This document shows, piece by piece, positions 2,717-42,536 of a DNA stretch of 49,256 nucleotides. The translations under genes were made by a program, and so were the position numbers. The stretch is taken from assembly GCA_964448615.1 (NCBI GenBank), contig CAYUWH010000001.1, forward strand, positions 54,146-103,401, written 5' to 3'. The stretch comes from an uncultured Candidatus Peribacteria bacterium (lineage in GTDB: Bacteria; Patescibacteriota; Gracilibacteria; Peribacterales; Peribacteraceae). Numbering within the stretch: the stretch's first letter is position 1; each line of letters starts with the position of its first letter. A model generated the notes under the pieces. It was not told the origin of the DNA. It ran no database searches and saw only the letters and a list, made by a program, of their open reading frames with translations.

Positions 2717-2723
2717 GCTTTAA

Positions 2724-9325: not shown

Positions 9326-9345
9326 AACTGTATAAATTTAACTCT

Positions 9346-9373: not shown

Positions 9374-9389
9374 GTATAAATGTATAATT

Positions 9390-10015: not shown

Positions 10016-10105
10016 GGCGAGAGGATACCGAAGAAACCGAGGATACCGAAGAGTCCGAAGAAGAATTTTCCAATCCTCGGACTCCTCGGCTTCTTCGGAC
10101 TCTTC
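10016..10105. repeat. intercistronic hairpin built from 9-nt tandem units (copy A)
   Basis: The left arm is GAGGATACC GAAGAAACC GAGGATACC GAAGAGTCC GAAGAAG. The right arm is TCCTCGGAC TCCTCGGCT TCTTCGGAC TCTTC. It fills the entire smpB-recR gap. Confidence 0.8.
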
Positions 10106-10546: not shown

Positions 10547-10612
10547 GGATGCATACCAGCATAGCTGCTGGATTGCTCGTTCTGAAGGGGAGTTTTGACG
10601 AATCCGATTTTC

Positions 10613-10640
10613 TTGATGTAATCACTAAAAATTGTATGAT
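10613..10640 (+). promoter_or_regulatory. candidate promoter of Nudix gene
   Basis: The promoter is TTGATG (10613-10618), N16, TATGAT (10635-10640). Confidence 0.4.
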
Positions 10641-10685
10641 GTCATCAGAGACCGTTCTTTTCACACAGAAAGGAAGGAGAACGTC

Positions 10686-11201
10686 ATGAAGCGATCCGTC
10701 GGATTGCTCGTCGCCGTTCGGCTCGAAGGAGAGCTGTACATCGCCCTCCAGCGCCGCGGCAAGTGGAAGTGGAAGAAGGGCAAACTCGAAAAGGAATCGT
10801 ATCCCGGCGGCTGCCAGGTGCTTGCTCACGGAGGCCTGGAAGACGGCGAGGATTTCCTGGCCGCACTGATGCGCGAGATGCGCGAAGAGCTTGGCATTCG
10901 CTTCCGTGACGTCGTCCTGCACGAACACGACCGGGGCAACGTGCAACTCCTGCACTCCATCCAAACGGAGGAACAGGAAGTGCAAACCTTCGGCCTGCAG
11001 ATGGAGCCGTATCTGCTGGAAGTGATCCAGTTCCATGCTGGCACCGGCGGCCTCGAGCTGGTCACGCGCCACCATCATCTGCGCAACCTGAAGGATCCCT
11101 GCTTCTCCAAGCAATACGGCGTCACGGACCGGGAAATCTACGCCCTGTTCCCTGATGAAATCGAGGCTGTGAAGAAAGCATTTGAGCGATATTCCTCCTA
11201 A
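10686..11201 (+). CDS. Nudix hydrolase
   Basis: It has a perfect Nudix box, GGLEDGEDFLAALMREMREELGI, matching Gx5Ex7REUxEExGU. A strong SD GGAAGGAGA (10672-10680) lies about 5 nt upstream of the ATG at 10686. The annotated upstream TTG start at 10632 is unlikely. Confidence 0.85.
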   Translation: MKRSVGLLVAVRLEGELYIALQRRGKWKWKKGKLEKESYPGGCQVLAHGGLEDGEDFLAALMREMREELGIRFRDVVLHEHDRGNVQLLHSIQTEEQEVQTFGLQMEPYLLEVIQFHAGTGGLELVTRHHHLRNLKDPCFSKQYGVTDREIYALFPDEIEAVKKAFERYSS

Positions 11202-11217
11202 AGAATCCCGCTCTCTG

Positions 11218-11250
11218 GGCCTTACCTCCATGGTAAGGTCCATTTTTTGG
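11218..11250 (+). terminator. rho-independent terminator of Nudix gene
   Basis: A 10-bp stem GGGCCTTACC/GGTAAGGTCC is followed by TTTTTT (11244-11249). Confidence 0.75.
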
Positions 11251-11330
11251 TTGTAAAACGCTAATTGGCGACGTTTTTCAATTTCTTACGGATTAATTGA
11301 CAAAAACACCGAAATTGGTACTATTTACTT

Positions 11331-11470
11331 GGTCTGCGCGTATCCCTTCCGTCTTCGGGTGGAAGCGGTTACCCGTTCATCGGGGAAAACAAGAAGTACT
11401 GCAGACTTTGAACCACGGGCTCTCGCCTCTACAACCTAGCCGCGAGGGCCCGCTTCATACTGCAATTTTT
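11331..11470 (+). ncRNA. candidate small structured RNA of unknown class
   Basis: A promoter is present: TTGACA (11297-11302), N16, TACTAT (11319-11324). The closing stem is GGUCUGC/GCAGACU (11331-37 with 11401-07). An 8-bp stem with a UUCG tetraloop lies at 11346-11365, and an 11-bp stem at 11416-26 with 11442-52. A U-run follows at 11466-70. The only ORF here starts at the TTG of the -35 box. Confidence 0.3.
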
Positions 11471-11495
11471 CCACCCTGATCCGGCCCATTCTCGA

Positions 11496-12085
11496 CCCTC
11501 ATCCGCCGCGCCGAGCGCGGCACCTTCTCCCGTGAGCGGGAGAAGGAGGAAGAGTTGTTATTTTTAAGATCATAGCTCCATGCAGCCAAATAAGGTGATA
11601 TGATGATCTGCTATGTTTCACACACCCTCTCGGCGCTCTAGTCAGAGAGAAGAAAAAATTGTGTATGCAAAAAGACTGCGGCGGCGCGCAACTCCTGCGG
11701 AGGAGTTTCTGTGGAAAGCCATCAGAGCAAGGAAATGCAGTGGAATTAAATTCCGAAGACAAGTCCCTTTTGGTCCATATATCGTTGATTTCTGCGCATT
11801 AGATCTGCGTCTGATTATTGAAATTGATGGAGAAATTCATCATAACCAACAAGAGGCAGATGCAGCGCGACAAACTCTACTGGAAGAACGGGGTTTCCGT
11901 GTTCTACGCTTCAGCAATACACAAGTGTTCTTTGAACTTCAAAGTACTTTAGAAGTAATAAGCACAGTTGCAGAACAGCAACTTCTCCTTCTCCCGCTCA
12001 CGGGAGAAGGTGGCTCCGCAGAGCCGGATGAGGGTGGAAGGGCATAATGAGAAAATGCCCCGCTCGGCGGGGCGGATGAGGGCGG
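11496..12085. mobile_element. DUF559 endonuclease cassette bounded by ~55-bp inverted repeats
   Basis: The left end is 11496-11551 (CCCTCATCCGCCGCGCCGAGCGCGGCACCTTCTCCCGTGAGCGGGAGAAGGAGGAAG). The right end is its near-exact reverse complement at 11982-12037. An additional solo end module lies at 12057-12085. Confidence 0.65.
11613..12047 (+). CDS. DUF559 (Vsr-like endonuclease fold) protein
   Basis: It reads AKRLRRRATPAEEFLWKAIRARK..GIKFRRQVPFGPYIVDFCA....LIIEIDGEIH...D..R...L...GFRVLRFSN..V, matching the DUF559 signature. The C-terminal tail LLPLTGEGGSAEPDEGG is read from the terminal repeat. Confidence 0.85.
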   Translation: MFHTPSRRSSQREEKIVYAKRLRRRATPAEEFLWKAIRARKCSGIKFRRQVPFGPYIVDFCALDLRLIIEIDGEIHHNQQEADAARQTLLEERGFRVLRFSNTQVFFELQSTLEVISTVAEQQLLLLPLTGEGGSAEPDEGGRA

Positions 12086-12101
12086 AGAAAGTGAGCGCTC
12101 A

Positions 12102-12860
12102 CTAAAATCCAAATACGCGGAGAATTTCTTCACCATACACAAACGCCAGTATCGTCCCCATCACCAAAAATGGTCCGAAGGCGATGCTCTGTCCTGCCTT
12201 GGTTTTCTGCAGCAGCAATCCCGCGACGGCAAATGTCGCACCAATGATATACGCCGCCATCAGCGCGACGAGCATGAGCTGCCATGATGAAAGAAATAAC
12301 CCCATCGCACCGGCGAGCAACACATCTCCGCTCCCTACCCAGCGTCCTTTACTGACCGCCCACTGCAATCCGAAAAACGCGAGACCGATCAATGCCCCGC
12401 CGAACGCAAGGTCGCCGAGCCACCAATGCAGCGCCAGACCCATGATGGCGACAAGCAAGGAAAGGATATCGGGAATGGATTGCGTATGCGCGTCGATCAC
12501 CGCGATCAGCAGAAGCGCCCAGAGTCCGAATGCCGTCCACACGGCCGAGAGCGGCGACTCTGGAAATAGCGCAATTGCAAGCCAAAAAAGAATGGCGCTC
12601 GCACTTTCCACGAGCGGATACTGCCAGGAAATCCTATGATGACAGCCGCTGCATTTTCCTTCGAGCAAAAGAAAACTGATGACGGGAATCAGTTCATGAA
12701 GACGAATCGTTTTCCCGCAATAGGGGCAATGACTCCGTCCGCCAATACTCCGCTCTTCCGGCAGGCGCGCAATCAGCACATTTCCAAAACTCCCGAAGAT
12801 CAATCCGGCAATCGCAAACAACGTGGGGAGAAACCAGGCCGGCAGCGACTCAAGCAGCAC
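12102..12860 (-). CDS. pilD: prepilin peptidase (A24 family)
   Basis: The N-terminal region has a CPYC...CSGC zinc motif. The body is polytopic and contains the conserved Asp-bearing segments IAVIDA and GSGDVLL. Confidence 0.9.
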   Translation of the reverse strand: MLLESLPAWFLPTLFAIAGLIFGSFGNVLIARLPEERSIGGRSHCPYCGKTIRLHELIPVISFLLLEGKCSGCHHRISWQYPLVESASAILFWLAIALFPESPLSAVWTAFGLWALLLIAVIDAHTQSIPDILSLLVAIMGLALHWWLGDLAFGGALIGLAFFGLQWAVSKGRWVGSGDVLLAGAMGLFLSSWQLMLVALMAAYIIGATFAVAGLLLQKTKAGQSIAFGPFLVMGTILAFVYGEEILRVFGF

Positions 12861-12878
12861 GGTCCCGAGTATACCGTC

Positions 12879-13148
12879 TCATTTCTGCTCTGTCCTCTCT
12901 TGCATAATCTCTCTGGCGCGCGCGCCGATTTTGGCGAATGCTTCTTTTTGTGCCTCATCGGAAAGTGCAGGAGCGGATTCTACTGCTTGCGGCTTCAACA
13001 AATTTGCCTCAATCGCAGGCACTGAGAATTTAACCAGTTCATACATTCCCATCGCCACAATCACGCCGACCGCGGAGCCGCAAAGCTGTTTCCACAGAGG
13101 GGGTTTCGCGTTTTTGTCGTTGGATGTGTGTGTCATATTTCTTCTCAT
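12879..13148 (-). CDS. small single-pass membrane protein
   Basis: It has one TM helix (LCGSAVGVIVAMGMYELV) and sits 18 nt upstream of pilD. The start could be the second ATG (MTHTS). Confidence 0.45.
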   Translation of the reverse strand: MRRNMTHTSNDKNAKPPLWKQLCGSAVGVIVAMGMYELVKFSVPAIEANLLKPQAVESAPALSDEAQKEAFAKIGARAREIMQERTEQK

Positions 13149-13232
13149 TATAGCAAAAATTTATAAATTTGCATAGAGACACCTTTGTAGCGGACCTTAC
13201 GTAAGGTCCGCTATCACGCATTATTGAAATCC

Positions 13233-13616
13233 TTATTTCTTCCTCTTGAAGCTGCTCTTATGGAGATGCGGTTCAAACGGCTCTGCACGCTCAATAGGGC
13301 AGGGAAGGCTTGCTTCGGAGAGACCCGGGGGTAAATGCTGATCATAGCCCAAAATAAGGAGATCAGGCTTGAGGTCACGCAGCGGACGCGAGAAATCATG
13401 CGCATCACCGAGAACTACCGTGGCGCGAGGAAATGCGGCACGCACGGCAGCCGCCCGCTCCTCCTCCGTATGATCAGGCAACAAATTCTTAATCTTCCGC
13501 ACGTTTTCATCTCGCGCAATCACGACAAACAACTCTCCCTTCTTCTGCGCTTGGGATAAATAGGAAAGATGGCCAGGATGGAGATGGTCGAAGGTACCGA
13601 AGGTTAAGACACGCAT
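13233..13616 (-). CDS. cytidylyltransferase-like nucleotidyltransferase (HxGH family; RibL/TagD-like)
   Basis: The N-terminus GTFDHLHPGH carries the (H/T)xGH motif of the nucleotidyl-transferase alpha/beta phosphodiesterase superfamily. The protein is short, a single domain. Confidence 0.8.
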   Translation of the reverse strand: MRVLTFGTFDHLHPGHLSYLSQAQKKGELFVVIARDENVRKIKNLLPDHTEEERAAAVRAAFPRATVVLGDAHDFSRPLRDLKPDLLILGYDQHLPPGLSEASLPCPIERAEPFEPHLHKSSFKRKK

Positions 13617-13717
13617 GAGAAGAGTTCGAAGAAACCGAGGATACCGAGGAGTCCGAGGAAATGAAAATACACATCCTTGGACTCTTCGGCTTCTTCGGAC
13701 TCATCGGATTCCTCTGA
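13617..13717. repeat. intercistronic 9-nt-unit hairpin (copy B, homologous to 10016-10105)
   Basis: The left arm is GAAGAGTTC GAAGAAACC GAGGATACC GAGGAGTCC GAGGAAA. The right arm is TCCTTGGAC TCTTCGGCT TCTTCGGAC TCATCGGAT TCCTCTG. It fills the whole gap between a stop codon (13718) and a start codon (13616). Confidence 0.8.
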
Positions 13718-15751
13718 TCATTTCGTCAAATCTACTACATGCACCCGTTTCGCATCGAGTACATAGAGATGCCCATCATCCGTATCGACATAGAGATCTT
13801 TCAGTTCACTGACCTGATCTCCTTCGAGTACATATTGCTTCAGATACACCGATTCTCCGTTGGGTCCGCCATCGCCCAACACGATGATGCGGGAATGCAC
13901 CGGATCAAGGAGGTAGAAATTACCCGAAGCCACTTTGAAAATTTTTGTCGTGTCCTTGAGCAGATCACCGGGCGCTTTGCGAATGACGAAGGGCTTGTTC
14001 TCGCCACGGAAGAGTTTCATGAGCACGCCTCCTTCTTTGAGCACGTAGACGTCACCGTCGATCGCGAAATCGAGCGCGCCGGTCAAGTCGCCGTTCACGT
14101 TGTATTCCACGGGCGCGGAGTAGCGGTTACTCAAACGTTCATACTTGTAGATCTGCTTCTTCTCGGGAGAAAGGATGTAGACGTAGCGGAGATACGTTTG
14201 CAGCGCGCGGCCGGTAGCCCAGCCTGCGGGATCTTCGGTCTTCACGGAAGTCGGCTGACCGCTCTGCACCTCAATAACGCTGTTGTTCTTTGTGAGGAAG
14301 ACCATGTTCTGGAAGCGTCCGAAGAATTCGCCGTCGATAATCAAATCCTGATCCGTGATCTTAAGCGGATCATCCACGGAGTTCAGCAATACGCGATAAA
14401 TGGACTGTCGATCGAAAACCGTGAATTCGCCGTCACCAATGCCGATGATACCTTGCGCGGCGACATCGGGGGATTTGGCCGCGATGTTCGCGACGATCCG
14501 CGGCGAGAGACGGACGATGTTGTTGATCTCCTCCTTCTTGGCACGGATTTTATCAAGCAGATCGAGCGCCTGCATGCGGAAAAGACCGCTCTCGTTATCC
14601 ATCACTTGCTTCGCCTTTTCTTCAGCGCGGGTGAGAATGGCATTGGCGGCATCGATATCGCCGATGATGCGGCGATTGTCGGCCGTCTGCACCTCGGTGT
14701 TGATTTCTTTCACCAAGCCCTCAAGTTCCGTTTTCGTTTTGCTGCGCTGACTGGAGGTAAAGAGATGCACCAACATCCAAATGACTATCAAGAGGGCCAC
14801 TGCAATCGCAATGAGGAGCAGATGGGCGCGCTGGCGGCGTTTGGGATGCTTAAGATCCGCCAGCAATCCTGAAAAACGCTCCCGAACCGTAGCGATCCAG
14901 TGTGAGGAACGCACTTTGGCGAGCGCCGAGGCGCTGCGCTTCATGGCAGTACCGCCTTTGGCGGACCAAGATTTCAGAGAAGCGAGAGACGGAGCCGATT
15001 TCATGGTCGGCAATCCTGTCGGCAACATCGCGCGGAGCTTGCCCAGCATTGCGGATGTTTCAGAGCGCTGATGCCTGCGAGGAAGATGCCGCTCTCTGCG
15101 CGCGTGTACGGATTCCACGGGAGCATCTTCGACGACTTCCGCAGATGGATCGAGCTGCGCCGTGGCCAAGGCAGCGTGGTCGCTCTCGCTCTCCAGCATC
15201 TTGATGAGCAGATCCAGGGGCTCAGATTGTTCGGCCGTCTTTGCGAGCTGTGCGGGCGTGAGCGTGCGGAGCAACCGCTGTGAAGAAAGCACGAGTGTAT
15301 CGCGTCTCTCGAGTTGACCGCTTGCGATATGCACAAAGGCAGGCGTGGATTTTCCGCTGGAATATTCCGTAATCTGGCTCGCGAGCCCGCTGCGGATCAA
15401 ATACGCCTCCGCGCGACCGGCATGCGAGACATGCAGCATGTGGTTGGGCTCCAAAATGGCGACGATCATGTGCACATCATCGATCACTTGCGATACGATC
15501 AATCCTTTGAGAAGACCGTTGAGCTCCTTAAGGGTGCCATCGAGACGCTGCGAAGCATCGCCCTCGGTCTCTAAGAGTGAATGCTTCACGACCATTTCGC
15601 ACTCGCGCTCCACGGTCTTCGCATCACGGTTTTTCGCATGTACTTCCATTAAAAAACACACCGTCTCCCCGTGATGGGACGTAAATTGGTGCGCGTTCAA
15701 ACTCGCATCACGCGGGGCCTTCGTGGATCCTGTGCGGATCGTAAGTTCCAT
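13718..15751 (-). CDS. large single-pass membrane protein: cytoplasmic N-domain (PP2C/SpoIIE-like?) plus extracytoplasmic repeat domain
   Basis: The ORF is long and intact, with a central TM helix (AHLLLIAIAVALLIVIWMLVHLF). The C-terminal part has beta-strand repeats. The likely start is the ATG at 15751 (MELTIRTG); the ORF remains open up to 15844. Confidence 0.7.
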   Translation of the reverse strand: MELTIRTGSTKAPRDASLNAHQFTSHHGETVCFLMEVHAKNRDAKTVERECEMVVKHSLLETEGDASQRLDGTLKELNGLLKGLIVSQVIDDVHMIVAILEPNHMLHVSHAGRAEAYLIRSGLASQITEYSSGKSTPAFVHIASGQLERRDTLVLSSQRLLRTLTPAQLAKTAEQSEPLDLLIKMLESESDHAALATAQLDPSAEVVEDAPVESVHARRERHLPRRHQRSETSAMLGKLRAMLPTGLPTMKSAPSLASLKSWSAKGGTAMKRSASALAKVRSSHWIATVRERFSGLLADLKHPKRRQRAHLLLIAIAVALLIVIWMLVHLFTSSQRSKTKTELEGLVKEINTEVQTADNRRIIGDIDAANAILTRAEEKAKQVMDNESGLFRMQALDLLDKIRAKKEEINNIVRLSPRIVANIAAKSPDVAAQGIIGIGDGEFTVFDRQSIYRVLLNSVDDPLKITDQDLIIDGEFFGRFQNMVFLTKNNSVIEVQSGQPTSVKTEDPAGWATGRALQTYLRYVYILSPEKKQIYKYERLSNRYSAPVEYNVNGDLTGALDFAIDGDVYVLKEGGVLMKLFRGENKPFVIRKAPGDLLKDTTKIFKVASGNFYLLDPVHSRIIVLGDGGPNGESVYLKQYVLEGDQVSELKDLYVDTDDGHLYVLDAKRVHVVDLTK

Positions 15752-25165: not shown

Positions 25166-25219
25166 TTGCCTCAAACACCCAAACGTGCTACAATAAGAAG
25201 AAACTTTCACACAAACACC

Positions 25220-26488
25220 ATGAGACCTTCACGTATGGCCATCTCACTTGTCCTGGCAATTATCCCTCTCGGCGTTGCACTCGCAGCACCGGGTAATGTG
25301 ACGGGCATCAAAGGGGAGCTGCTCAATGGCAAGGTGCACGTAAGCTGGCAGAAGCCGGCGGGGGAGGAACCCGTTTCGTATCGCATTTTCTATTCTCGCG
25401 CGTCGATTTTGGAACAAAACGGTCTGTACGATGATTTTGAAACTGTCCCGGCCTCCTCAACCGAATTCACGTTTGCATCATTGCCCTATACGACGCCGGC
25501 ATTGTACGTATCCGTGTTAGCCGTGGATGATAAAGGAGAGGAGAGCCCGCTCTTTATGGAAGAAACGCGCATCAGCATTGATGGCAGCGCCGCGCCTGCG
25601 CCGTCGTCTTCACAGACCGCATCCTCAGTCGCGCAGCAAGAAACGTCTTCATCGCCCGCCATGGGGAACGGCGTTGTACGCTTGCTCACGGCAAAAGCAG
25701 TTTCCGCCACGGGCGTCCTGCTTACCTTCTCACATGATACGGAAGTGGACCCATCCAACGCAGCCGAGGCATTCGTCATCCGCGATGCCAGCGGCTCAAC
25801 ACTGCGCATTGTGCGCATGGTGATTCTCGGCACGGGCGTCACGCTCCATACGACGATGCAGGAACAAGGACGCGTCTACCGCCTTGAGGCATCGGCCTCT
25901 GCAGTGATGGGCAAAGATGCGGAAGGAAAGACGTTGCCACTCGATCCTCTGCAGGAACAGGTGCTCTTCAGCGGTCATGAAACCGGCGCGCCGTTCGGAT
26001 CGCTTTCCTCTTCGCAGCCGACAGTATCGTCCTCGGTGCCCAGTGCCGCTGCACAGGATGTGTACGGCCTGAATGTGCGTGGAGTCCCGATGGGCGCTAC
26101 GTATAGGGTGGAAGCGACCTGGCAGCCCTCCGATGCCGACGTGCGTGAATACCACGTGTCGCAAACCCGTGACGGCGGACGCACCTACAGCGATCCGCAG
26201 ATCGTCGCGCCTTCCGTCACCGCCATCAAGATTTCTAATGTTCCGAGCGGGTCCTTTGGATTGAAGGTCCAGGCGATGCTCTTCGACGGCATGATGTCTC
26301 GCGGCGTTGCCCAGAACATCACTCTGCCACAGTTGGAGAACGATCCTCCCCGCATTATCGGGCCGATCCAAGCTCCGGGAAAGGACGACGAACTCCCGCA
26401 AACGGGTCTCGCTCTCTTGCTCCCGATGCTAGCTGCGGGTGCGGGCGCCGGCTTGCGCATCGCAAAACAGAGGAAACAGAGAGCCTAA
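25220..26488 (+). CDS. LPXTG-anchored surface protein with FN3-like domains
   Basis: It has a signal peptide (MRPSRMAISLVLAIIPLGVALA). The C-terminal sorting signal is LPQTG, then a hydrophobic stretch, then a basic tail RIAKQRKQRA. The ORF-track start at 25166 lies inside the repeat. Confidence 0.8.
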   Translation: MRPSRMAISLVLAIIPLGVALAAPGNVTGIKGELLNGKVHVSWQKPAGEEPVSYRIFYSRASILEQNGLYDDFETVPASSTEFTFASLPYTTPALYVSVLAVDDKGEESPLFMEETRISIDGSAAPAPSSSQTASSVAQQETSSSPAMGNGVVRLLTAKAVSATGVLLTFSHDTEVDPSNAAEAFVIRDASGSTLRIVRMVILGTGVTLHTTMQEQGRVYRLEASASAVMGKDAEGKTLPLDPLQEQVLFSGHETGAPFGSLSSSQPTVSSSVPSAAAQDVYGLNVRGVPMGATYRVEATWQPSDADVREYHVSQTRDGGRTYSDPQIVAPSVTAIKISNVPSGSFGLKVQAMLFDGMMSRGVAQNITLPQLENDPPRIIGPIQAPGKDDELPQTGLALLLPMLAAGAGAGLRIAKQRKQRA

Positions 26489-26505: not shown

Positions 26506-27366
26506 GTGACATCTTCGTCAAATCGATGGTTGTTTGTCCTTGCGCTGCTCGTGCTTGTGCTCGGGGTTTTTGTGGCATGGCGCGAGTACCGGCTTGCAAA
26601 TCCGGGTGCACTGGAAGTGCATGTATTGGATGTCGGCCAAGGCGACAGTATTTTCATGGTCAGCCCCACAGGCAAGCAAGTGCTGATCGACGGCGGCCCG
26701 AATCTCGCCACGCTCAGGGGACTCGGAAAGTACATGCCCTTCTTTGACCGTTCGATCGATCTGCTGGTGCTCAGTCATCCGGACCTCGATCACATCGCCT
26801 CCTTTCCGGAGGTACTGCGGCGGTATCAGGTGAAGTCCGTGCTTATGACGGGCATCGATACCTCTTCGTCGCGGTATCAGGAATTTCTCTCGCTGCTGCC
26901 GCGCGAGAACGCGCAGATTTTACTGAGCGACAAAACCGATACGATCGACTTGGGCGACGGCGTAAAGCTCTCGGTGTTGTGGCCGAAAGAATCTCTCTAC
27001 AACGTGCGCCCGAAGAGTCCCAATAATACCTCGATTCTGCTGCGTGCGACCTTCGGCAGTTCTTCTTTGCTCTTTACGGGGGATATGGAACTGCCCGAGG
27101 AGAATGCCATCGTGAAAGCCGGCATTGATCTTAATGCTGATATCCTGAAAATCGCGCATCATGGGAGCAAGACCTCCACTTCAACCGGCTTTCTGTTGAA
27201 GGTAAATCCTTCGCTCGCCATCATCTCTGTCAGCGCTACCAACACGTACGGACATCCTCATCCCATCGTCATGAATCGCCTCCGTCACTTTGGGATTCCC
27301 GTGAGAATGACTTCGCAGGAAGGGGATATTAATTTAACATTCACTCAATCTCATATAGGTAATTGA
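26506..27366 (+). CDS. ComEC/Rec2-related metallo-beta-lactamase domain protein (no channel domain)
   Basis: It has an N-terminal TM helix followed by HVLDVGQGDS...VLSHPDLDHI...KIAHHGS. The start codon is GTG. Confidence 0.85.
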   Translation: MTSSSNRWLFVLALLVLVLGVFVAWREYRLANPGALEVHVLDVGQGDSIFMVSPTGKQVLIDGGPNLATLRGLGKYMPFFDRSIDLLVLSHPDLDHIASFPEVLRRYQVKSVLMTGIDTSSSRYQEFLSLLPRENAQILLSDKTDTIDLGDGVKLSVLWPKESLYNVRPKSPNNTSILLRATFGSSSLLFTGDMELPEENAIVKAGIDLNADILKIAHHGSKTSTSTGFLLKVNPSLAIISVSATNTYGHPHPIVMNRLRHFGIPVRMTSQEGDINLTFTQSHIGN

Positions 27367-27847
27367 ACATTGTAGTCACATGTTTGCGAACATCAGAAAA
27401 ATCACTTTTGTTCCACTTGGATCTATCTCCAATAATGCTTGCTAAATTATAAAGAAATAATGCATGTGGCTCCTGAATATTTCCATTATTTTCCCAGTTA
27501 TGAAGAGGAAATGTGACCTCAAGAATTTTTTGATATCCTTTTTCTGTCCAATTCAAAATTTTGATGTCATTTTTTGCCAGAAATAACATAAGCGTAGTAA
27601 TTGCTAATCTTTTATTACCATTATGAAAATATTGAGATCCAGCAATACTAGTAATGAGATATGATGCTTTTTCAAAGAAAGTTGAATAGTATTCATCTTG
27701 CTGCGCAAAGCATAAAACTTTTTCTAGCTCTGCTATACCTGATAATTCTGATAAATAATCAGCCGTTGGCTCATTTTCTGTAAGTGCATTTTTAATATAT
27801 GGAAATCCAATTAAAACAAAATCTTCCTTCGTTAAATATTTTATCAT
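27341..27847 (-). CDS. Doc/Fic-fold toxin-like protein with non-canonical active-site motif
   Basis: It aligns to the Doc core at SQYFHNGNKRLA; the Doc consensus is HxFx(D/N)(A/G)NKR. The gene is AT-rich and has an ATGA overlap with the upstream small ORF. Confidence 0.75.
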   Translation of the reverse strand: MIKYLTKEDFVLIGFPYIKNALTENEPTADYLSELSGIAELEKVLCFAQQDEYYSTFFEKASYLITSIAGSQYFHNGNKRLAITTLMLFLAKNDIKILNWTEKGYQKILEVTFPLHNWENNGNIQEPHALFLYNLASIIGDRSKWNKSDFSDVRKHVTTMFNYLYEIE

Positions 27848-28005
27848 TTTTTGGCTAACTCACGAATAAGAGCACGGTAGCTTTCATCCCATTTATTAAT
27901 ATCGCGAGGGACTTTTTTAAAGCCTTGATCTTTAACAATCGATCCGATTTTTTGATCGAGTGTCTGCTCTTTTTGGGCCTTGGATTTCCAAAACCATAAA
28001 TTCAT
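27844..28005 (-). CDS. putative antitoxin (53 aa)
   Basis: The small ORF is translationally coupled (ATGA) to the Doc-like gene. The start is chosen at the ATG at 28005; the longer 124-aa version runs into the divergent promoter. Confidence 0.5.
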   Translation of the reverse strand: MNLWFWKSKAQKEQTLDQKIGSIVKDQGFKKVPRDINKWDESYRALIRELAKK

Positions 28006-34355: not shown

Positions 34356-34384
34356 TTGCGTCAAAACGCGTTTTCATGTATAAT
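34356..34384 (+). promoter_or_regulatory. promoter of the 901-aa gene with embedded palindrome
   Basis: The promoter is TTGCGT (34356-61), N17, TATAAT (34379-84). The spacer contains the 12-bp perfect palindrome AAAACGCGTTTT (34363-74). The ATG lies 11 nt after the -10 box. Confidence 0.65.
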
Positions 34385-34395
34385 AAAAAGATTTC

Positions 34396-37101
34396 ATGTG
34401 TCACATCCACAACCAATTCGGCACACAAGTACCAGGACGTGAACAACGTTTAGTATTTTTGGCGAATGAAGGCGCGCCTCTTAGCAGATTGCTCGGGCTC
34501 GGCATGATGTCGATTGACGAGCATATGGCGCTCAAGGAATCACCCGAACTTTTTGCAAAACACAACACTGAAGCGCGGCAGAAAAATGCGACCCAAGAAA
34601 CGCAAAAAACCCAGGATCTCTTGAAAAATATCGCCCAAAGAGCGTTCGATCGCGAAGTGAATGAAAAAAAGCGCTCCCCGGAAGATGCGTTGAGGGCAAT
34701 AAAATTGTGGTTCCATGACATTGCGGAAGTTCGCTTGGTTGCGTTCCGCCTTGGCGCGGATGGCAAGACATTGGAAGTAATACCGGCGCCCAAGGAAATC
34801 ACGGAAATCCCTGATGCGAACAACACCCAGACTTCTTTGCTTGAAGCACAAACAAAAGAGGCCGAGAAAAAGTACCGCGATATTGCATGGAGCGCTGATG
34901 TTACCCCGCAACAAAAACTCGATGCCTTTTCCGCGATGCAGGCTGCTCGCGAGGCCGAGCTGAGCCACTTGAAAGCGTCGTTGGTGACCGACCTCTCTCA
35001 CATTCCTGCTGAGCAACGGACGATGAACACGATGAGAGAATGGCGAATTAATGAGATCAATATTTACCATCCGTCCGACGAAAAAAACAGAGATACCCTC
35101 AAGAAAAATATCGAGATCGCCGCGCGTGCAGAAAGGCTTGAAAAGGCTAAGGCCGAGACGGTGAAAACAACTGCCGCATTGTGGGATGCCGGATTTACTA
35201 TGCGGACCACAACGGTGACGGAAACAGTGCCGGCCCGTTCAAGAACGCATTATGAATTTTTCACCGGGCAGTCAAAACCCAAGCCTACCTCCGTTGAAAA
35301 ACAAGTGACCAATACAGTGAAGCGCAACTTGGAAGAGCGCCGTGAGCCCAAATACAGAGAAGCACTTATGGCACACATCAACGCATCCAAGGCGGAGATC
35401 GCGATCATTGCGGAGAAGGGGCTCATGGAGGGGGGCTTGAGCAAAGAGGAGCAAGATCGCGTTGCATTGCTGCAGGCATCACTGGAAAAACATGAAGAGG
35501 ATTTAAAGGAGATTCAATCAAGCCTGGTGCTGACGCAGGAGGAGGAAGATGAACGTGCCCTGTCTCCCTCTGATCGTCGCAAGCGCGCGGGTCTTCAGTT
35601 GTTGCGAAAAGCCATGAATGATAAGACCGTGAATGTGAACATTAGTGATGATGAATCCAGGGTGACTATCGTTGGGCACAAAGGAAAAGATTGGATGGAA
35701 TTGGAATTCACGGGGGACAAATGGCAATTAACAAATGTGAACAGTTATCGCACGGAACCTGCACCCGATGGGCTTTTGAATGAGGGATATAAAATGATCA
35801 ATCGCATTACAGACATGGATTCTGCGGGAAAGGTGTTTATCGGAAGCATTGATTATTCTGTTGTTGGTACGCATAAGTTCATAACAGGCTATGATTTTGA
35901 GAAAGAAAGAAACAAGTCCGCAGTGCTTTGTAATCAAATTGCAAAAGGCTGTTTGGCCCTCAACGATCTCGATTTCGCAGCACCCAAGCCGACAACCGCT
36001 TCGCATCTCGCAGTCAGGCCCATTCCACTTGATCCGCCAAAACCTGAGGTAATTGATGCACAAAGACAGAGTGCGCTGAAGGGGAAGACCGAAGCGCTTT
36101 CGGCGACTTGGAACACTGAAAGAAAGAAAGAAGATCTCTCCGCACAAGAAAAATTGTGGATCCTCGATCCCCTTATTGCAGCTACGGAGGAAGAATTGCG
36201 TCTCCATCAAAGTGCTTCCAAGCAGGATGATGCTGTGCAGGAGAGAATGAAAGTGCTTCAGCGTTTGCTGGATCAATGCATGGCGGACCGGGCGGGGCTT
36301 ATGAAATTTAAATGCAAAGAGTCCACCGATGCCGCCGAAAAGACCCATAAAGAAAAGCCCACCCCAGAGACGTGGCGTGTTCTTGTCGACAATGCGATGG
36401 TGGAACGAAATGTTCTTCTCAGTTTCCCGTCTGGCTCGGACTATGAAGTGGAACGTCTTGCAGTCCTTAAAACACTAATGGATGAAGGACAGACACATGA
36501 AGAATCAGCAACTCCCCAAGAAACGGCGGCAATCACGAAAGAAATTATGGTGGCAAGAACAGCTTCTCAAAAAGCGGAAGATCGCATGCGCGTCCTCTTG
36601 ACGATGTTCCAGCCGATGGATGGCCGCAAGGTGTCCTTTCCTGCAGGGGTGGCGGCTTACTATCTTGCGGTGAAAGACGATATCGTCAGAGCGCATGACA
36701 TGGAGTATCGCGCGCTCTTGCGGCAGTCTCCGGCTACGAGAAAAGCTACAGGAAATGCGGAGCGATTCTCCCAATTAGAGAAGGCTATCCCACAAGAAAT
36801 AGCCGATCGTGAGCAGCAGTACGCATTGATGTTGATGGATAAATCCAATACGGCATCGAAGATTGTGGAGCAGCGTAGAAAAAACAATCCTCAAATGCTG
36901 CCCGATGCCCTTGCTCATTGTGTGAAGACGTTGCAAGTAGAATATGAGAACTTTCAGGCAAAGAGGCATGAACCGGAAGAGCGGCACCAAGCGGATCTTG
37001 GTCGCGCAAGGCTTTTGTTGTCCATCATTAAGGATATGCGCAAAGAGCGGCAGGATTTGCTCCAAAAAGCCCTGACAAGCCAAGGGAATGGCGGGGCGTA
37101 A
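34396..37101 (+). CDS. large orphan protein (901 aa), predicted mostly helical, no signal peptide or TM
   Basis: The ORF is long and intact with its own promoter. It shares two modules with the 431-aa ORF at 37523-38818. Confidence 0.75.
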   Translation: MCHIHNQFGTQVPGREQRLVFLANEGAPLSRLLGLGMMSIDEHMALKESPELFAKHNTEARQKNATQETQKTQDLLKNIAQRAFDREVNEKKRSPEDALRAIKLWFHDIAEVRLVAFRLGADGKTLEVIPAPKEITEIPDANNTQTSLLEAQTKEAEKKYRDIAWSADVTPQQKLDAFSAMQAAREAELSHLKASLVTDLSHIPAEQRTMNTMREWRINEINIYHPSDEKNRDTLKKNIEIAARAERLEKAKAETVKTTAALWDAGFTMRTTTVTETVPARSRTHYEFFTGQSKPKPTSVEKQVTNTVKRNLEERREPKYREALMAHINASKAEIAIIAEKGLMEGGLSKEEQDRVALLQASLEKHEEDLKEIQSSLVLTQEEEDERALSPSDRRKRAGLQLLRKAMNDKTVNVNISDDESRVTIVGHKGKDWMELEFTGDKWQLTNVNSYRTEPAPDGLLNEGYKMINRITDMDSAGKVFIGSIDYSVVGTHKFITGYDFEKERNKSAVLCNQIAKGCLALNDLDFAAPKPTTASHLAVRPIPLDPPKPEVIDAQRQSALKGKTEALSATWNTERKKEDLSAQEKLWILDPLIAATEEELRLHQSASKQDDAVQERMKVLQRLLDQCMADRAGLMKFKCKESTDAAEKTHKEKPTPETWRVLVDNAMVERNVLLSFPSGSDYEVERLAVLKTLMDEGQTHEESATPQETAAITKEIMVARTASQKAEDRMRVLLTMFQPMDGRKVSFPAGVAAYYLAVKDDIVRAHDMEYRALLRQSPATRKATGNAERFSQLEKAIPQEIADREQQYALMLMDKSNTASKIVEQRRKNNPQMLPDALAHCVKTLQVEYENFQAKRHEPEERHQADLGRARLLLSIIKDMRKERQDLLQKALTSQGNGGA

Positions 37102-37113
37102 CAGTGCTTTAGT

Positions 37114-37142
37114 TTGCTCTAAAACGCGTTATAAGGTATAAT
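37114..37142 (+). promoter_or_regulatory. promoter of the 119/431-aa operon, paralogous to 34356-34384
   Basis: The promoter is TTGCTC (37114-19), N17, TATAAT (37137-42). AAAACGCGTT lies at 37121-30, in exactly the same register relative to the -35 box as in the 901-aa promoter. Confidence 0.65.
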
Positions 37143-37161
37143 GAAATGATTTATTCGCTCT

Positions 37162-37521
37162 ATGGACCCAACACAAACAACCGCCGGCGACCCATCCGAT
37201 GCTTCCTCTAACCCACTGGTACGTGGGCAGGAGATTTACGATCAGATCATGGCAGAAGTGGAGCCTGAGTTGGTGACCGCGACATTGGCAACGCTGGGCG
37301 AAAAATACAAAGACGAAACGCCGGAGCAGGCCCAAGCACGCGCCGTGCGTTACGAGGCGGCTTTTGCGGAGTACGACAAGCGCTACGCAACCTACATGGC
37401 AGATCTCTCTGGCAAAGTTCATTCCCTCCAGCGCACAGTGCGTGCGGGTATTGAGACGGATGATCGAAAAGAGGAAGAGAATGCGCTGACTTCTTTGGAA
37501 AATTCCATTACATCCGCCTGA
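37162..37521 (+). CDS. small acidic helical protein (119 aa)
   Basis: Its stop lies 1 nt before the start of the 431-aa ORF, indicating translational coupling. No known motif is recognised. Confidence 0.6.
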   Translation: MDPTQTTAGDPSDASSNPLVRGQEIYDQIMAEVEPELVTATLATLGEKYKDETPEQAQARAVRYEAAFAEYDKRYATYMADLSGKVHSLQRTVRAGIETDDRKEEENALTSLENSITSA

Positions 37522-37522
37522 T

Positions 37523-38818
37523 ATGCGTTTCACCTTTCCACAATTCTCGGTGTCGTTCGCAGAGCGGAGGATGGTGTGGTATGGCCCTGAAGCGCCACCG
37601 CCTGTTCCCGCCACGCCGGAGGCTACCGCTGATCGCCCCAAAATGGATTTAACGGCACTGCGAAATAACGCAGAAGTACGTGGTAAAAGTGCGGGAGAAG
37701 CCACTAAGGCTCACGAGAAAACATTGGAGGATCTTGCGCAGAAACACTTCGATATCTTAGTGAAAAAGATAAAACCGGAAGAGGCTGTCAAGCAAATCCA
37801 GGATGAATTCAAAGCCGAAGGTATTCAACTCGTGAATGTCCGCCTCGCGCCTGATGGAAAGACTCTTCAGGTTACGCCCGCGAAGCCGCTTTCTCCCACA
37901 GCTCAAGAGCTGAAAAATTTGGGAGAAGAATTGAAGACCCAGATTGAAGCCTTGAAAGATCCGGGTGATCCCAACGATAAGCTGGGTAATCTTGCAAATA
38001 AGGCAGGAGCGATTATGGCGATTCTCGGCACGATGACCAAAATGATGGAGGTCGCGACGAAGGGCGTAAAACCGGTAGAAATGCTTACGCAGAGAATGGA
38101 GGATGTGCAGGATCCGGAAGCGGAAGGAAAGAAGGTCGCCGCGGAATTGCAAAAACTCTCAGGATTGCCTCCCACTGAAGCGATCAATACTCAGATAAAA
38201 ACGCTGCGCACGTATCAGGCGGAACTCGTCAAAGAGCAGGCCAAACGCACGAAGCTCGTTACTGATAATGCTAATGGTAAAACGATGAAACTTGCGGGCG
38301 GGGTGATTTCCATTGATTTCGCGGATGAGACAGCCGTCGGGCAGATTAAAAACATTTTCGAGGCAAAAAAGGAATTGATTCAAAGCTCCGCCTTTAAAAC
38401 TGAGGGTAAAACATTGAATATCACGGTTCCCCCGAACTTTTGGCAGAGTGCCAATAGCCCTGGTGTTATCATTCAGGCGATTGCAAGTATGGATGGCAGA
38501 AGTACTGCTGAAACCTTGAATAGTGATATTACGAAGTTCAAGGGTATTGAGTTGATGAAAAATTCAGGGTTGCCTCCCGCTACAGTGGGTTTGCTAGATA
38601 CATACACGATTCCAGTTGCAGAAGGCGGCGACTACCCTAACTTAGAACTGAGATATTCTCCAGGAGAGGGAGGATGGTTACTGAATAATGCGGATGCACA
38701 ATTTACGCCGGTGGCACGGCCTGATAAAGATTTATATCAGAATGCGCCAACAGGTTCTGCAAAAGAGAAGGCCAACACACTGATCAAAGCGATCCTTGCG
38801 CTGAATCCACAAAAATAA
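37523..38818 (+). CDS. orphan protein (431 aa), paralogue of the 901-aa protein
   Basis: The shared N-module reads EDLAQKHFD..PEEAVKQI....VRLAPDGKTLQVTPAKP, against KNIAQRAFD..PEDALRAI....FRLGADGKTLEVIPAPK in the 901-aa protein. The shared C-module reads LELRYSPGEGGWLLNN....ANTLIKAILALN, against MELEFTGDKWQLTNVN....CNQIAKGCLALN. Confidence 0.75.
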   Translation: MRFTFPQFSVSFAERRMVWYGPEAPPPVPATPEATADRPKMDLTALRNNAEVRGKSAGEATKAHEKTLEDLAQKHFDILVKKIKPEEAVKQIQDEFKAEGIQLVNVRLAPDGKTLQVTPAKPLSPTAQELKNLGEELKTQIEALKDPGDPNDKLGNLANKAGAIMAILGTMTKMMEVATKGVKPVEMLTQRMEDVQDPEAEGKKVAAELQKLSGLPPTEAINTQIKTLRTYQAELVKEQAKRTKLVTDNANGKTMKLAGGVISIDFADETAVGQIKNIFEAKKELIQSSAFKTEGKTLNITVPPNFWQSANSPGVIIQAIASMDGRSTAETLNSDITKFKGIELMKNSGLPPATVGLLDTYTIPVAEGGDYPNLELRYSPGEGGWLLNNADAQFTPVARPDKDLYQNAPTGSAKEKANTLIKAILALNPQK

Positions 38819-38829
38819 GCGTTCGTCGC

Positions 38830-39162
38830 CTATGCCGCGACGTGTCGCCCTTGGAGTTCGATGGGATGCTGATTCATCTTGCTCAAGATTTCCCACACTT
38901 TGTGATACACAAATCGTTGCAGTTTTACCGGTAATTGCCGGATTGTTTCTTGTATGAACTCAGGATTACAGTCGGGACCCATTGGTGCGAGCAGCGCTTG
39001 CAACCGGTGTTCCAAGCGTTCACGGGAAGTTTCCAGGATCACGACAAACGCATCGAGTGCCGCTTCATGCAGCGCTTCAGCGTGTTCCGCCAGACAGAGA
39101 GAATCAGGGCGAATACTCATAGGCACATGAAATGCCTGCTTTATCTTATCTCCAATTGACAA
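38830..39162 (-). CDS. hypothetical protein (96-110 aa)
   Basis: The ORF is convergent with the 431-aa gene. The start is either the TTG at 39162 or the ATG at 39120. No motif is recognised. Confidence 0.4.
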   Translation of the reverse strand: MSIGDKIKQAFHVPMSIRPDSLCLAEHAEALHEAALDAFVVILETSRERLEHRLQALLAPMGPDCNPEFIQETIRQLPVKLQRFVYHKVWEILSKMNQHPIELQGRHVAA

Positions 39163-39757: not shown

Positions 39758-39795
39758 AGACCCCTGCACTATTCGGATGCAGGGGTCTTTTTTTG
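39758..39795 (+). terminator. rho-independent terminator
   Basis: The stem AGACCCCTGCA/TGCAGGGGTCT is followed by TTTTTTT. A small hairpin TGGCAA-TTTT-TTGCCA precedes it at 39741-56. Confidence 0.8.
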
Positions 39796-39848
39796 TAGCA
39801 CGGGTGCCTCGTTATTTCTTTCCTGCTTCACTCCAGTATTCTTTCCCC

Positions 39849-41525
39849 ATGTTCTCTGTCCGTTCGCGCGATACGGCGCTCGGCATCATCCTTGCCCTTG
39901 GCGTGAGCGTTGTTCTCAATTTGCCGCTGTGGCATGCGTTGATCATCACTGACGAAGCGCGAAGGCCCGACGTCATCAGTGAGAGTTCGGATGAAGAGTT
40001 TTATCTCACACGCATTCGGGAGGTTGCAGATGGACACACACGTGCGGGACATCCGTATCTCTACGAGCGGCGCGATCAGGCGTACCCACTCGGGAATTTT
40101 TGGGAAGTGATCGTGAGCAGCCCCATGCGCTTGGGATTCTCTCTGAAAACGACGTCGCTCATGACCGATGCGGTGTTTCCATTCCTCCTGGCATTGCTGC
40201 TTTGGATCGCGGTCCGGCCGATTCTGCCGCAACGGCGCTGGAGGACGCTCTTGATCTTCACCCTCTTCCTCGGGTGGGAACTCTTTTGGTGGAAGCGTCC
40301 GATCAGTCCGCAGGCGACCATGGTTTTACCATTGCTCTATTTCTGGGCATTTTTTCATCTCAAAAGAGAAACACTTTGGCTCACCATTATCCGTAGTGCG
40401 CTCATTGGCCTGATGATTCATTCCTACTCGTTTCACTGGACGTACTGTCTGGGTGCGGAAGGACTTCTGACGTTGTTGCTTCTGGCAACGGATGAAACCT
40501 GGGCCATGCGCCTCAAGCGCGTTGCAGCTGCTGCCATTCCTTTTCTCCTCATTGCATCGCCGTGGATTCTCATGATGCTTTCCCTGCACGGAAATGTGGA
40601 ATACGCCCAAACGCTCGAGCGTCTCGGCATGCTGCGTCGTCGCTTTCCAGCGGGCATTGTGCTGCAACTCTTCATTCTTGGTGCAGGGCTTCTGACACTC
40701 CTCGCGAGACGTACTTCCCGTGATAAAGACACATCTACGGGATTATTCGTGTTGCTTGGCGCGGGGCTCGTCATGCTTAATCAAATGCTGATCACGGGGC
40801 AGGAAGCGGAGTTCTCAAGCCACTATCGACAGATCATCTTCTTCCCTTTGTGGATTGCGGTGATATGGTCGTGTTCAATTCTGCTGCGATCACAGGTCAT
40901 TCTTTCGCGCGTGATTCCTGTGGTTGCCTTGATCGTCGTCGGTGTGCAAACAGTGCGGGCTACTCAACAACACTGGATTGGATTCGAGGAGAAGCGAAGC
41001 GATGCCATCGTGCGTGAAACCCGGATGGAATGGATGGGTGCTCTCAATACAATTCCGGGGCAGCAGGTCGTTCTGACCGATGAATTCGTCGCGCATGACC
41101 TGACCGTCTATACGTCGCATTATCCGTTCTTCATGAGTGAGACGCATTTGTATTTGATGGATAATGACACACTGATGAGACGCCTTGCGGTCCAGCGCGC
41201 GCTTGTTCCGGACTTTGTCTATGGATCTCGCGCGCTCGTCGGTGCATCCGCTTTGAACCAGGCTTTGCACGCGCAGACGCTTTGCAGAATACAGTTGCTG
41301 CTATTCATGCGTCATGAGCCTTGTGCGTACAAGCCCGAGGATTTTCTTCCGGAGCGTTGGCACTATGTGATGAATGTGAACCCGACGGATACGGAGATCC
41401 TGAATACGTTGAAAGATGCACATGTCACGCAGGTGATGCTGAAAAAAATTCCTGCAGTCATTCAACCGTTTATAAAAAACCAACGGCGGGTCGGAGGGTA
41501 CGCGCTGGCGGATGTTGTGTGGTGA
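39849..41525 (+). CDS. polytopic membrane protein (possible GT-C-like glycosyltransferase), function unknown
   Basis: It has about 10 or more hydrophobic helices followed by a soluble C-terminal domain. The start is placed downstream of the terminator that sits inside the longer ORF-track version. Confidence 0.65.
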   Translation: MFSVRSRDTALGIILALGVSVVLNLPLWHALIITDEARRPDVISESSDEEFYLTRIREVADGHTRAGHPYLYERRDQAYPLGNFWEVIVSSPMRLGFSLKTTSLMTDAVFPFLLALLLWIAVRPILPQRRWRTLLIFTLFLGWELFWWKRPISPQATMVLPLLYFWAFFHLKRETLWLTIIRSALIGLMIHSYSFHWTYCLGAEGLLTLLLLATDETWAMRLKRVAAAAIPFLLIASPWILMMLSLHGNVEYAQTLERLGMLRRRFPAGIVLQLFILGAGLLTLLARRTSRDKDTSTGLFVLLGAGLVMLNQMLITGQEAEFSSHYRQIIFFPLWIAVIWSCSILLRSQVILSRVIPVVALIVVGVQTVRATQQHWIGFEEKRSDAIVRETRMEWMGALNTIPGQQVVLTDEFVAHDLTVYTSHYPFFMSETHLYLMDNDTLMRRLAVQRALVPDFVYGSRALVGASALNQALHAQTLCRIQLLLFMRHEPCAYKPEDFLPERWHYVMNVNPTDTEILNTLKDAHVTQVMLKKIPAVIQPFIKNQRRVGGYALADVVW

Positions 41526-41693: not shown

Positions 41694-42536
41694 CTATTCG
41701 GACTGCGGGTCCCCGATTCCCTTCAGTTCACTGAATCGAATATGTTCCGCCTGCGCCTTGCGATCGATCGCCTTCTTTTCCGCGCGAGCGCGGTCCCTCT
41801 TTTCCTGGGCGATAGCTTCCGAGCGAAGGTGTTCCATGTTCGCATGCAGCTCCAGCTGGCGATTTCTACTCTCTGCTTCCGCCTCCGCAATGGCGCGCCT
41901 TCTGCGCATTTCTATCTCACTGTCACTGCCTTCTTTCTTGTTTTTCAGAGCGCGTTTGGCATGGAGACTCTCGGTCTCCGCCAGATCTCTTTTGCGCTTC
42001 TCTTCCGCAAGGATTGCCGCTCGCTGCCGCCTCTCCTCCTTCTCGATCGTTGCCAGTTTTTCCTTCGCCTGTTGTTCGGCATGTCGTTCCTCGCGTTGCA
42101 TAGTGTGCTCTGCCTCTTTCTTCGCTTCTTCCTCTTGATGATGCGCCGTTCTCCGCTTGGTCGCCAACCGCTGCATGACGGCATGCTCGTGTAACTCGCG
42201 AAGTCGCTGCGTGCGTTTGTCATCCTCCTCTTTCAGCTTTGCTTTTTTCTCTTCTTCTTGCCGAACTTCTTCTTGATGCTTTCTTGCGGCATCTGCTTCC
42301 GTGCGCCGTTCCTTGCGCTTCTCGGTTCGTCGTTCCCTAATATCTTCAGACTTCTGCTGCTGAATTGCCGTCTCTCCTTCGATTGCGGATTTCATCGTTG
42401 TCTCCGATACCGCTTGATCGGCTCTTCGCTTTTCCATCGCTGCTTTCTCGGTTTCGATCATTGCATTGCGTGCATCAATGATCTTTTGGATTGCCTCTTT
42501 GCGTTCATCGGGGGTGGGCATGGGGGGATTGTACAT
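41694..42536 (-). CDS. E/K/R-rich coiled-coil-like protein (280 aa)
   Basis: The ORF is highly charged and low in complexity. Long open frames on the opposite strand are composition artefacts. Confidence 0.55.
   Translation of the reverse strand: MYNPPMPTPDERKEAIQKIIDARNAMIETEKAAMEKRRADQAVSETTMKSAIEGETAIQQQKSEDIRERRTEKRKERRTEADAARKHQEEVRQEEEKKAKLKEEDDKRTQRLRELHEHAVMQRLATKRRTAHHQEEEAKKEAEHTMQREERHAEQQAKEKLATIEKEERRQRAAILAEEKRKRDLAETESLHAKRALKNKKEGSDSEIEMRRRRAIAEAEAESRNRQLELHANMEHLRSEAIAQEKRDRARAEKKAIDRKAQAEHIRFSELKGIGDPQSE

Follow-up and report, generated by a model that had tools for sequence, protein, structure and literature searches.

The 49,256-nt stretch of DNA analysed here (the window, to which all positions refer) belongs to an uncultured Candidatus Peribacteria bacterium (contig CAYUWH010000001.1, positions 54,146 to 103,401). 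Between mfd and aspS it carries a locus, at 34396-39162, that encodes two large proteins of 901 and 431 aa and a small protein of 119 aa. Comparison with related loci identifies it as one complete cassette (119 + 431) plus a partner-less paralogue (901) of a two-gene module specific to Peribacteria. The conserved anchor of this module is the 119-aa protein together with a motif of ~30 residues at the N-terminus of the large protein. By the same comparisons, the remainder of each large protein is a mosaic of helical and disordered segments that are non-homologous and have been shuffled between genomes; in one pair of close relatives the C-terminal half has been replaced. The reading favoured here, with a probability of about 0.55, is that the small protein may act as an adaptor or chaperone for polymorphic client proteins, the 901-aa protein being the one client without a partner gene of its own at this locus.

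The cassette and its conserved anchor

The locus has three genes on the forward strand: the large 901-aa paralogue without its own small gene (34396-37101), the small conserved protein of 119 aa (37162-37521) and the large 431-aa protein coupled to it (37523-38818). Their codon-usage scores lie between 0.14 and 0.26 (0.14 for the 901-aa gene, 0.21 for the 431-aa gene), and antisense open reading frames (ORFs) score negatively. A preliminary description of this DNA had listed these three together with a convergent ORF of ~100 aa as a further partner, and all four are present. The convergent one (110 aa; 38830-39162, reverse strand) is probably no gene. Its codon-usage score of 0.009 is about 0, none of the related loci contains a homologue, and it is not counted as part of the system; searches of Pfam, NCBIfam, PHROG and PADLOC gave no significant match to it, a PADLOC hit to LmuA at E=0.001 being rated as not significant.

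The close coupling of the 119-aa and 431-aa genes is confirmed: the TGA stop codon of the small gene (37519-37521) is followed after 1 nt by the ATG of the large gene at 37523. The order of the two has to be corrected, since the small gene lies upstream of its partner and not after it. The public gene call for the large protein begins at M17 (415 aa; 37571 rather than 37523) and is too short, because the N-terminal motif of the family aligns to residues 1-38; on this evidence the true start is the ATG at 37523. The mis-call is probably the reason why a word-index search did not return even the 431-aa query itself.

The small protein is the part of the cassette that can be followed from genome to genome. 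When the four proteins were compared by tblastn with loci anchored on Mfd, the small protein recurred, each locus having one to three copies of it after mfd, whereas the large proteins did not. A search with a fused small-plus-N-terminus profile collected 59 small-protein clusters (E 1e-52 to 1e-29), all of them unnamed or 'hypothetical' and none with a Pfam domain; those named for an organism are from Peribacteria. In the fetched related loci (given L-numbers below), metagenome scan included, there are 68 small genes. The 119-aa protein matches a hidden Markov model (HMM) of the small-protein alignment A3 at E=5.7e-45, though this alignment contains the 119-aa sequence itself; independent tblastn of the protein to loci L003-L008 gives E=7e-29 to 8e-14. 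The conserved neighbourhood that had been proposed as a check for both small ORFs is thus found for the 119-aa partner, which recurs, but not for the 110-aa ORF.

The small protein is acidic (pI 4.4) and predicted to be helical, as the preliminary description had it. Its AlphaFold2 (AF2) model, computed from a 58-sequence alignment, has a pLDDT (predicted local distance difference test) of 88 and is all-helical, with a short helix (residues 18-33), two turns and one helix of 65 residues (54-118). A profile of the small family finds no match among PDB sequences, and Foldseek finds none for the model in the PDB (best E=7.4) or BFVD. Pfam returns only scattered sub-threshold matches to 58 small proteins (DUF7812 in 12, DUF3348 in 8, WXG100 in 4), and searches of NCBIfam, PHROG and PADLOC with the 119-aa protein gave no significant match. 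The fold of the small protein as modelled is new, and the components of the cassette are new at the sequence level.

The second half of the anchor lies within the first ~40 positions of the large protein. The motif, of ~30 residues, has an aromatic- and His-rich start, then …F…[K/R]-E-x-R-L-[I/L]-x-F…P and a Pro-rich linker, and it was found in nearly all ORFs downstream of small genes. An HMM built from 49 large proteins, the window sequences excluded, and run against 7464 ORFs finds it in residues 1-38 of the 431-aa protein (37523-37636, forward strand; MRFTFPQFSVSFAERRMVWYGPEAPPP…) at E=1.2e-4. With residues 1-28 of the 901-aa protein, whose motif is placed at 34396-34485 (forward strand; MCHIHNQFGTQVPGREQRLVFLANEGAP), the HMM aligns no better than E=8. 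The 901-aa protein is accordingly assigned to the family mainly because of its position and of a second N-terminal module that it shares with the 431-aa protein (see below). Readings of the motif as a twin-arginine translocation (Tat) signal or a double-glycine leader were considered by eye and rejected, since a hydrophobic h-region and a conserved GG are both missing.

A large ORF directly follows nearly every small gene, and most cases that appeared partner-less were resolved by the motif HMM. The distance between the two genes is -4 to +6 nt in 38 of 50 non-redundant pairs, and small-protein subtypes track partner types, a subtype with the signature 'IPTGxELYD…TTEG' going with partners of 177-221 aa. 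Cassettes stand in tandem, two or three per contig, and usually one to three of them lie directly downstream of mfd; the order glmU-dnaN-mfd-(one to three cassettes)-…-aspS-nrdR-dnaE is found in ~20 contigs. The window has dnaN-mfd-901-119-431-…-aspS-nrdR-dnaE, with GlmU, DnaN and Mfd encoded upstream and a GNAT acetyltransferase, a 582-aa ORF, tRNA-Leu, AspRS, NrdR and DnaE downstream. Its Mfd is 65-75% identical to that of metagenome-assembled genomes of Candidatus Peribacteria, Peribacteraceae and Peregrinibacteria, an identity that assigns the window to a bacterium of the candidate phyla radiation, one using the standard genetic code. What had been taken for an orphan locus occupies a site between mfd and aspS that is syntenic in many Peribacteria. 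More distant members of the family lie after rpoC, in the spc ribosomal-protein region or beside ftsA/ftsZ. Large paralogues that have the motif but no partner gene also occur elsewhere, two of them in L093 and one in L103.

Several related loci depart from the simple cassette. Another, seemingly unrelated type of small helical protein (104-118 aa) is encoded in L061 (1496-1810) and L023 (14259-14615), ahead of the motif-bearing large gene that comes first after mfd; the two resemble each other by eye, and phmmer detects no homology between them or with the 119-aa family. L093 holds an array of four large genes (795-6241, reverse strand, and 8538-13805, forward strand). The reverse strand encodes the motif-bearing paralogues, of 1431 and 383 aa, the shorter of which ends in a hydrophobic helix like a tail anchor, and the forward strand encodes one cassette and a further ORF of 891 aa. 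On a JGI contig of P0015, a HEPN/nucleotidyltransferase (MNT) toxin-antitoxin pair (942-1636) lies immediately upstream of a two-cassette array.

Mosaic structure of the large proteins

Where complete, the large proteins measure roughly 180-1060 aa, and all-against-all phmmer finds most of them mutually unalignable. The 901-aa protein retrieved only itself, both from 5.8 billion clustered proteins and from 1.84 billion representatives searched exhaustively by phmmer, and ordinary homology search returned nothing for the 431-aa protein. Neither has a family match in Pfam, NCBIfam, PADLOC or PHROG or a sequence match in the PDB, and no well-characterised family was found to which they could belong, in line with the preliminary description. 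Its statement that they have no signal peptide or transmembrane helix also holds, with Kyte-Doolittle maxima of 1.13 (901 aa) and 1.06 (431 aa), below transmembrane strength, and no export signal. A Pfam scan of 48 large proteins of the family gave no toxin, enzyme or other domain, and only isolated single-member coiled-coil noise.

The two large proteins of the window share a module after the motif, as had been claimed. Residues 55-131 of the 901-aa protein and residues 47-120 of the 431-aa protein form an alignment of 78 residues with 42% identity (BLASTP E=2e-10, phmmer E=1.6e-9; Smith-Waterman score 122 against 30±5 for shuffled sequences), and the module as a whole spans residues 54-133 (34555-34794, forward strand) and 46-122 (37658-37888, forward strand), respectively. 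In the AF2 model of the 431-aa protein it consists of two helices (57-79 and 85-98) and then a beta hairpin (strands 104-108 and 115-119), with pLDDT 57-74. Weak similarity extends to the large proteins of the first cassettes in L003 (tblastn E=0.001) and L004 (E=0.004). The preliminary description took this 75-aa module for the conserved N-terminal part: the N-terminus is indeed conserved, but the anchor is the small protein plus the ~30-residue motif, and the 75-aa module is local, being limited to this genome and a few near relatives.

A second shared module, said to join the C-terminus of the 431-aa protein to the middle of the 901-aa protein, did not withstand comparison. BLASTP gives E=19, the segments originally picked by hand score 29 by Smith-Waterman against 24.4±4.4 (p=0.16), and an HMM built from look-alike segments of relatives places the 901-aa site at decoy level (5.3 bits). 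The form behind the proposal is a short amphipathic helix, …A-N/Q-x-Φ-Φ-x-K-Φ-x-x-L…, which is seen inside or at the end of many large proteins, often after a hairpin of the type 'Φ-x-Φ-x-F/Y…G-x-W'. Examples are residues 413-427 of the 431-aa protein, the C-terminus of a 799-aa protein in L059 and the C-termini in L007 and L008. It recurs by eye, without statistical support.

A central domain of ~80-110 aa around an amphipathic helix (…L.M.G.D…nkFMG…K.KG) is present in 11-13 of 51 large proteins. Its HMM does not raise either window protein above decoys, and for both these reasons the domain is not universal in the family; its profile finds only weak noise among PDB sequences, namely designed ankyrins (DARPins) and ApoE. 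The 431-aa protein has an amphipathic, hydrophobic helix at residues 153-178 (37979-38056, forward strand; …KAGAIMAILGTMTKMMEVATKG), marked by the hydrophobicity maximum and by an AF2 helix. It may be equivalent to the central-domain helix of relatives, an equivalence judged by eye only, since the central-domain HMM match is not significant.

How such divergence can arise is seen in L007 and L008, a pair of close relatives. Their Mfd proteins are 95.7% identical, with a synonymous divergence (dS) of 1.18, and the genes flanking the large gene are 71-90% identical. Within the large gene, columns 100-200 are 95% identical with a dS of only 0.13; past the central helix ('…LLQSIKDGSY') identity falls to 20-40%, dS is saturated, and the nucleotide sequences, 36-43% identical, are unalignable. 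This pattern of identity and dS argues for localised replacement by recombination and not for uniform drift. C-terminal replacement was seen in this one genome pair, not for the window genes. The order of modules also differs between L059 and L061.

The 901-aa gene follows mfd after a gap of 62 nt, with no small gene upstream. A promoter-like element precedes it at 34356-34384 (forward strand), read directly from the sequence as TTGCGT, a 17-nt spacer with the palindrome AAAACGCGTTTT, and TATAAT. Comparison reveals a second copy upstream of the 119-aa gene at 37114-37142 (forward strand), with TTGCTC, a 17-nt spacer containing AAAACGCGTT, and TATAAT. The two regions are ~80% identical over ~50 nt, and the exact 10-mer AAAACGCGTT occurs twice in the whole window, both times in these elements (the second at 37121). 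The shared promoter-like element and the 42% identity of the N-terminal modules point to a tandem duplication that gave rise to the 901-aa unit and the 119/431 unit, with the small gene then lost from the first copy. The ATG of the 901-aa gene lies 11 nt downstream of the -10 box, so that an mRNA started there would be nearly leaderless. A consensus promoter scanner made no call on the element upstream of the 901-aa gene, and the AAAACGCGTT element is not conserved upstream of cassettes in other genomes.

Proposed function and competing explanations

In the adaptor-client reading, the small protein would bind the N-terminal motif of its co-translated partner through a conserved aromatic and acidic helix face and, as the dedicated adaptor or chaperone of this client, would stabilise or target it. 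The long exposed helix of the AF2 model would suit such a hetero-complex. Paralogues without a partner gene, the 901-aa protein among them, would be served in trans by the same small protein, and the actual, diversifying function would reside in the variable C-terminal regions. The likeliest role of these regions is in interaction with the cell envelope, a host or the environment, and this is the weakest step of the scheme. A more specific and decidedly tentative version, unlikely on present evidence, would see in the small protein and the motif a new targeting system of Peribacteria/Peregrinibacteria, in which the adaptor reads the N-terminal peptide and mosaic large proteins are delivered, independently of Sec, to the surface or to a partner cell. 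If true, this would be a polymorphic host-interaction system specific to the candidate phyla radiation (CPR), with components that have no relatives elsewhere. The Candidatus Peribacter genome paper (PMC4736985) does not mention a small/large cassette family, and the hypervariable gene described from Gracilibacteria (PMC6851277) is a different thing, a PTD-repeat protein.

Several observations weigh against the adaptor-client reading. The small protein is a putative adaptor or chaperone on the basis of co-conservation, and its binding of the motif is proposed from co-conservation and gene coupling. Taken by itself, the motif match of the 901-aa protein lacks significance, and the AF2 model of the whole 431-aa protein, made from a three-row alignment, is poor (pLDDT 49), its secondary structure agreeing with an N-terminal module of two helices and a hairpin and with the helix at 153-178. 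The large proteins show no sign of export, be it a signal peptide, a transmembrane helix, an LPXTG motif or a C-terminal signal common to them; most have no segment of transmembrane strength. The large proteins are also Cys-poor (median 0.19%), whereas the exported proteins of Ca. Peribacter were reported to be frequently rich in Cys (PMC4736985). The locus has no secretion machinery beside it, pilB and pilC being 27 kb off, and the neighbours of the cassettes are housekeeping genes (mfd, rpoC, ftsAZ, the spc operon), which fits an intracellular role equally.

The main rival, a serious contender though clearly the less probable, takes up these last points. It holds that the module is an intracellular structural or scaffold system, in which large cytoplasmic proteins, helical, disordered and amphipathic, are nucleated or capped by the small protein; they could for example be membrane-peripheral, division-related or nucleoid-related, and their divergence would reflect low constraint rather than diversifying selection. 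The Cys-poor composition and the lack of any kind of export signal are as expected for such proteins, as is the location of cassettes beside dnaN-mfd, rpoC, ftsA/ftsZ and the spc ribosomal operon. The 177-221 aa partners resemble low-complexity charged tails, and the central helix is an amphipathic one that falls short of transmembrane strength. The divergence, however, is not uniform drift: in the L007/L008 pair a block of 94% identity abuts an unalignable one with a jump in dS. Modules have moreover been shuffled between genomes, and tandem amplification and paralogue arrays would be unusual for a housekeeping scaffold.

A polymorphic effector or adaptor layout was the suggestion of the preliminary description, and its formal elements are there: a conserved N-terminus, divergent and replaced C-termini, a small adaptor-like gene upstream, tandem copies and partner-less paralogues. 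Read strictly, as a system of delivered effectors with swappable C-terminal toxins, a small secretion adaptor and immunity genes behind them, it is improbable. Pfam recognises no toxin, effector, enzyme or other domain in the 48 large proteins, and no conserved small or immunity-like gene was seen after the large gene, where the genes vary among loci and the window offers only the unsupported 110-aa ORF; for these two reasons the strict reading is not supported. Family scans also gave no hallmark of type VI or type VII secretion systems (T6SS, T7SS), contact-dependent inhibition (CDI) or Rhs, and the locus is core and syntenic rather than island-like.

Still less probable is a role in toxin-antitoxin function or anti-phage defence, in which the small upstream gene would encode an antitoxin or sensor and the large gene an effector. 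A small upstream gene with a 4-nt overlap does resemble type II toxin-antitoxin operons, the 119-aa protein has a PADLOC match to ZorG/DUF3348, and a HEPN/MNT pair adjoins one cassette. The PADLOC match is weak (E=0.009), and none reaches significance; DUF3348 matches only 8 of the 58 small proteins, weakly, the large proteins have no enzymatic domain, the family is absent from viral contigs, and its position is fixed in the core genome. That there is no functional unit, and that unrelated fast-evolving orphans are adjacent by chance, would suit the failure of ordinary searches to find 901-aa or 431-aa homologues outside this genome, but it is refuted by the recurrence of adjacency, coupling and N-terminal motif in ~50 independent small/large pairs across diverged genomes.

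A large part of bacterial diversity belongs to CPR bacteria, most of which probably live attached to other cells; to our knowledge, the molecules that mediate this attachment are largely unknown. An apparent orphan gene pair has here become a definable, lineage-wide family, recognisable by the profile of its small protein, by its N-terminal motif and by its syntenic site, which is kept in the streamlined genomes of Peribacteria, amplified in tandem and diversified by recombination. Should the large proteins be surface or host-interaction factors, the family would mark where Peribacteria evolve fastest, and the small protein and its peptide would form a simple, testable recognition module. Should they be intracellular scaffolds, the pair would still be an unusual conserved adaptor with an almost unconstrained client.

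Other genes of the window and resemblance to known systems

Elsewhere in the window, adjacent genes at 4013-7082 (reverse strand) encode a PilC-like protein (T2SSF, E=5e-47) and a PilB-like protein (T2SSE, E=2e-118, with an MshEN domain), an assembly pair of the type IV pilus or type II secretion system kind. Upstream of them are two ORFs without a Pfam match (1265-2716 and 2724-3938, both reverse strand). A 449-aa protein with a Fic/DOC domain (7976-9325, reverse strand) lies in a low-GC stretch (36% at 8001-9000 against ~53% for the window), which may have come in as an island by horizontal transfer. GC content is low (38%) also at 27001-28000, a stretch that overlaps a 168-aa ORF (27341-27847, reverse strand), and a 440-aa protein (25166-26488, forward strand) has a fibronectin type III domain (E=4.5e-6). 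The 582-aa ORF downstream of the cassette (39777-41525, forward strand) belongs to no Pfam family and resembles a multi-pass membrane protein in sequence. Beside aspS, an extremely charged, K/E/R-rich protein of 280 aa (41694-42536, reverse strand) has no Pfam match; ORFs of 310-314 aa at the same aspS-side position in L007, L008 and L026 have an N-terminus that looks similar by eye.

Among known systems, the PE/PPE pairs of mycobacteria, which are ESX (type VII) substrates, share with the present cassettes a small helical gene that is immediately upstream of a larger gene and coupled to it, a larger protein with a conserved N-terminus and highly variable, recombining C-terminal extensions, and many paralogues, some of them unpaired. 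In contrast with these pairs, no match to PE, PPE or WXG100 exceeds the Pfam threshold: the 4 weak WXG100 matches among the 58 small proteins have a best E=0.0032, below the curated cut-off, and W-x-G is not conserved in alignment A3. The conserved part of the large protein is here a ~30-residue peptide and not a PPE domain of ~180 aa, the host is a CPR bacterium, and no ESX machinery was seen in the 49-kb window.

A small acidic partner beside its client, presumed to recognise the N-terminus of the latter, is also typical of class I chaperones of type III secretion systems, of the Eag/DUF1795 adaptors of T6SS and of the LXG-Lap pairs of T7SSb. The all-alpha AF2 model of the 119-aa protein, with its single 65-residue helix, differs from the alpha/beta fold of CesT/SycE, and unlike secretion adaptor-effector pairs the family has no LXG, PAAR or Rhs domain in 48 large proteins and no cognate secretion system nearby. 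Polymorphic toxins of the CDI, Rhs, LXG and MafB types likewise combine a conserved N-terminal part with a replaceable C-terminal part, tandem arrays and evidence of recombination; a toxin domain, an immunity gene and a known demarcation motif are missing here, and the location is in the core genome.

Chaperones of Tat substrates of the TorD/DmsD/NarJ type offer a further parallel, as dedicated helical chaperones for a short N-terminal Arg peptide, and the E-R-R-L-x-F of the present motif loosely resembles the Tat consensus S/T-R-R-x-F-L-K. In contrast with Tat signals, the second Arg is found in only 20 of 50 members (~40%) and the motif is followed by a hydrophilic linker rich in Pro and Glu instead of a hydrophobic h-region; unlike Tat chaperone pairs, the family has no TorD-family Pfam match and its clients have no cofactor domain. 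None of the defining domains of these systems is present, and by its layout the module would most resemble the PE/PPE pairs and the modules formed by a chaperone and its effector or by an adaptor and its polymorphic protein.

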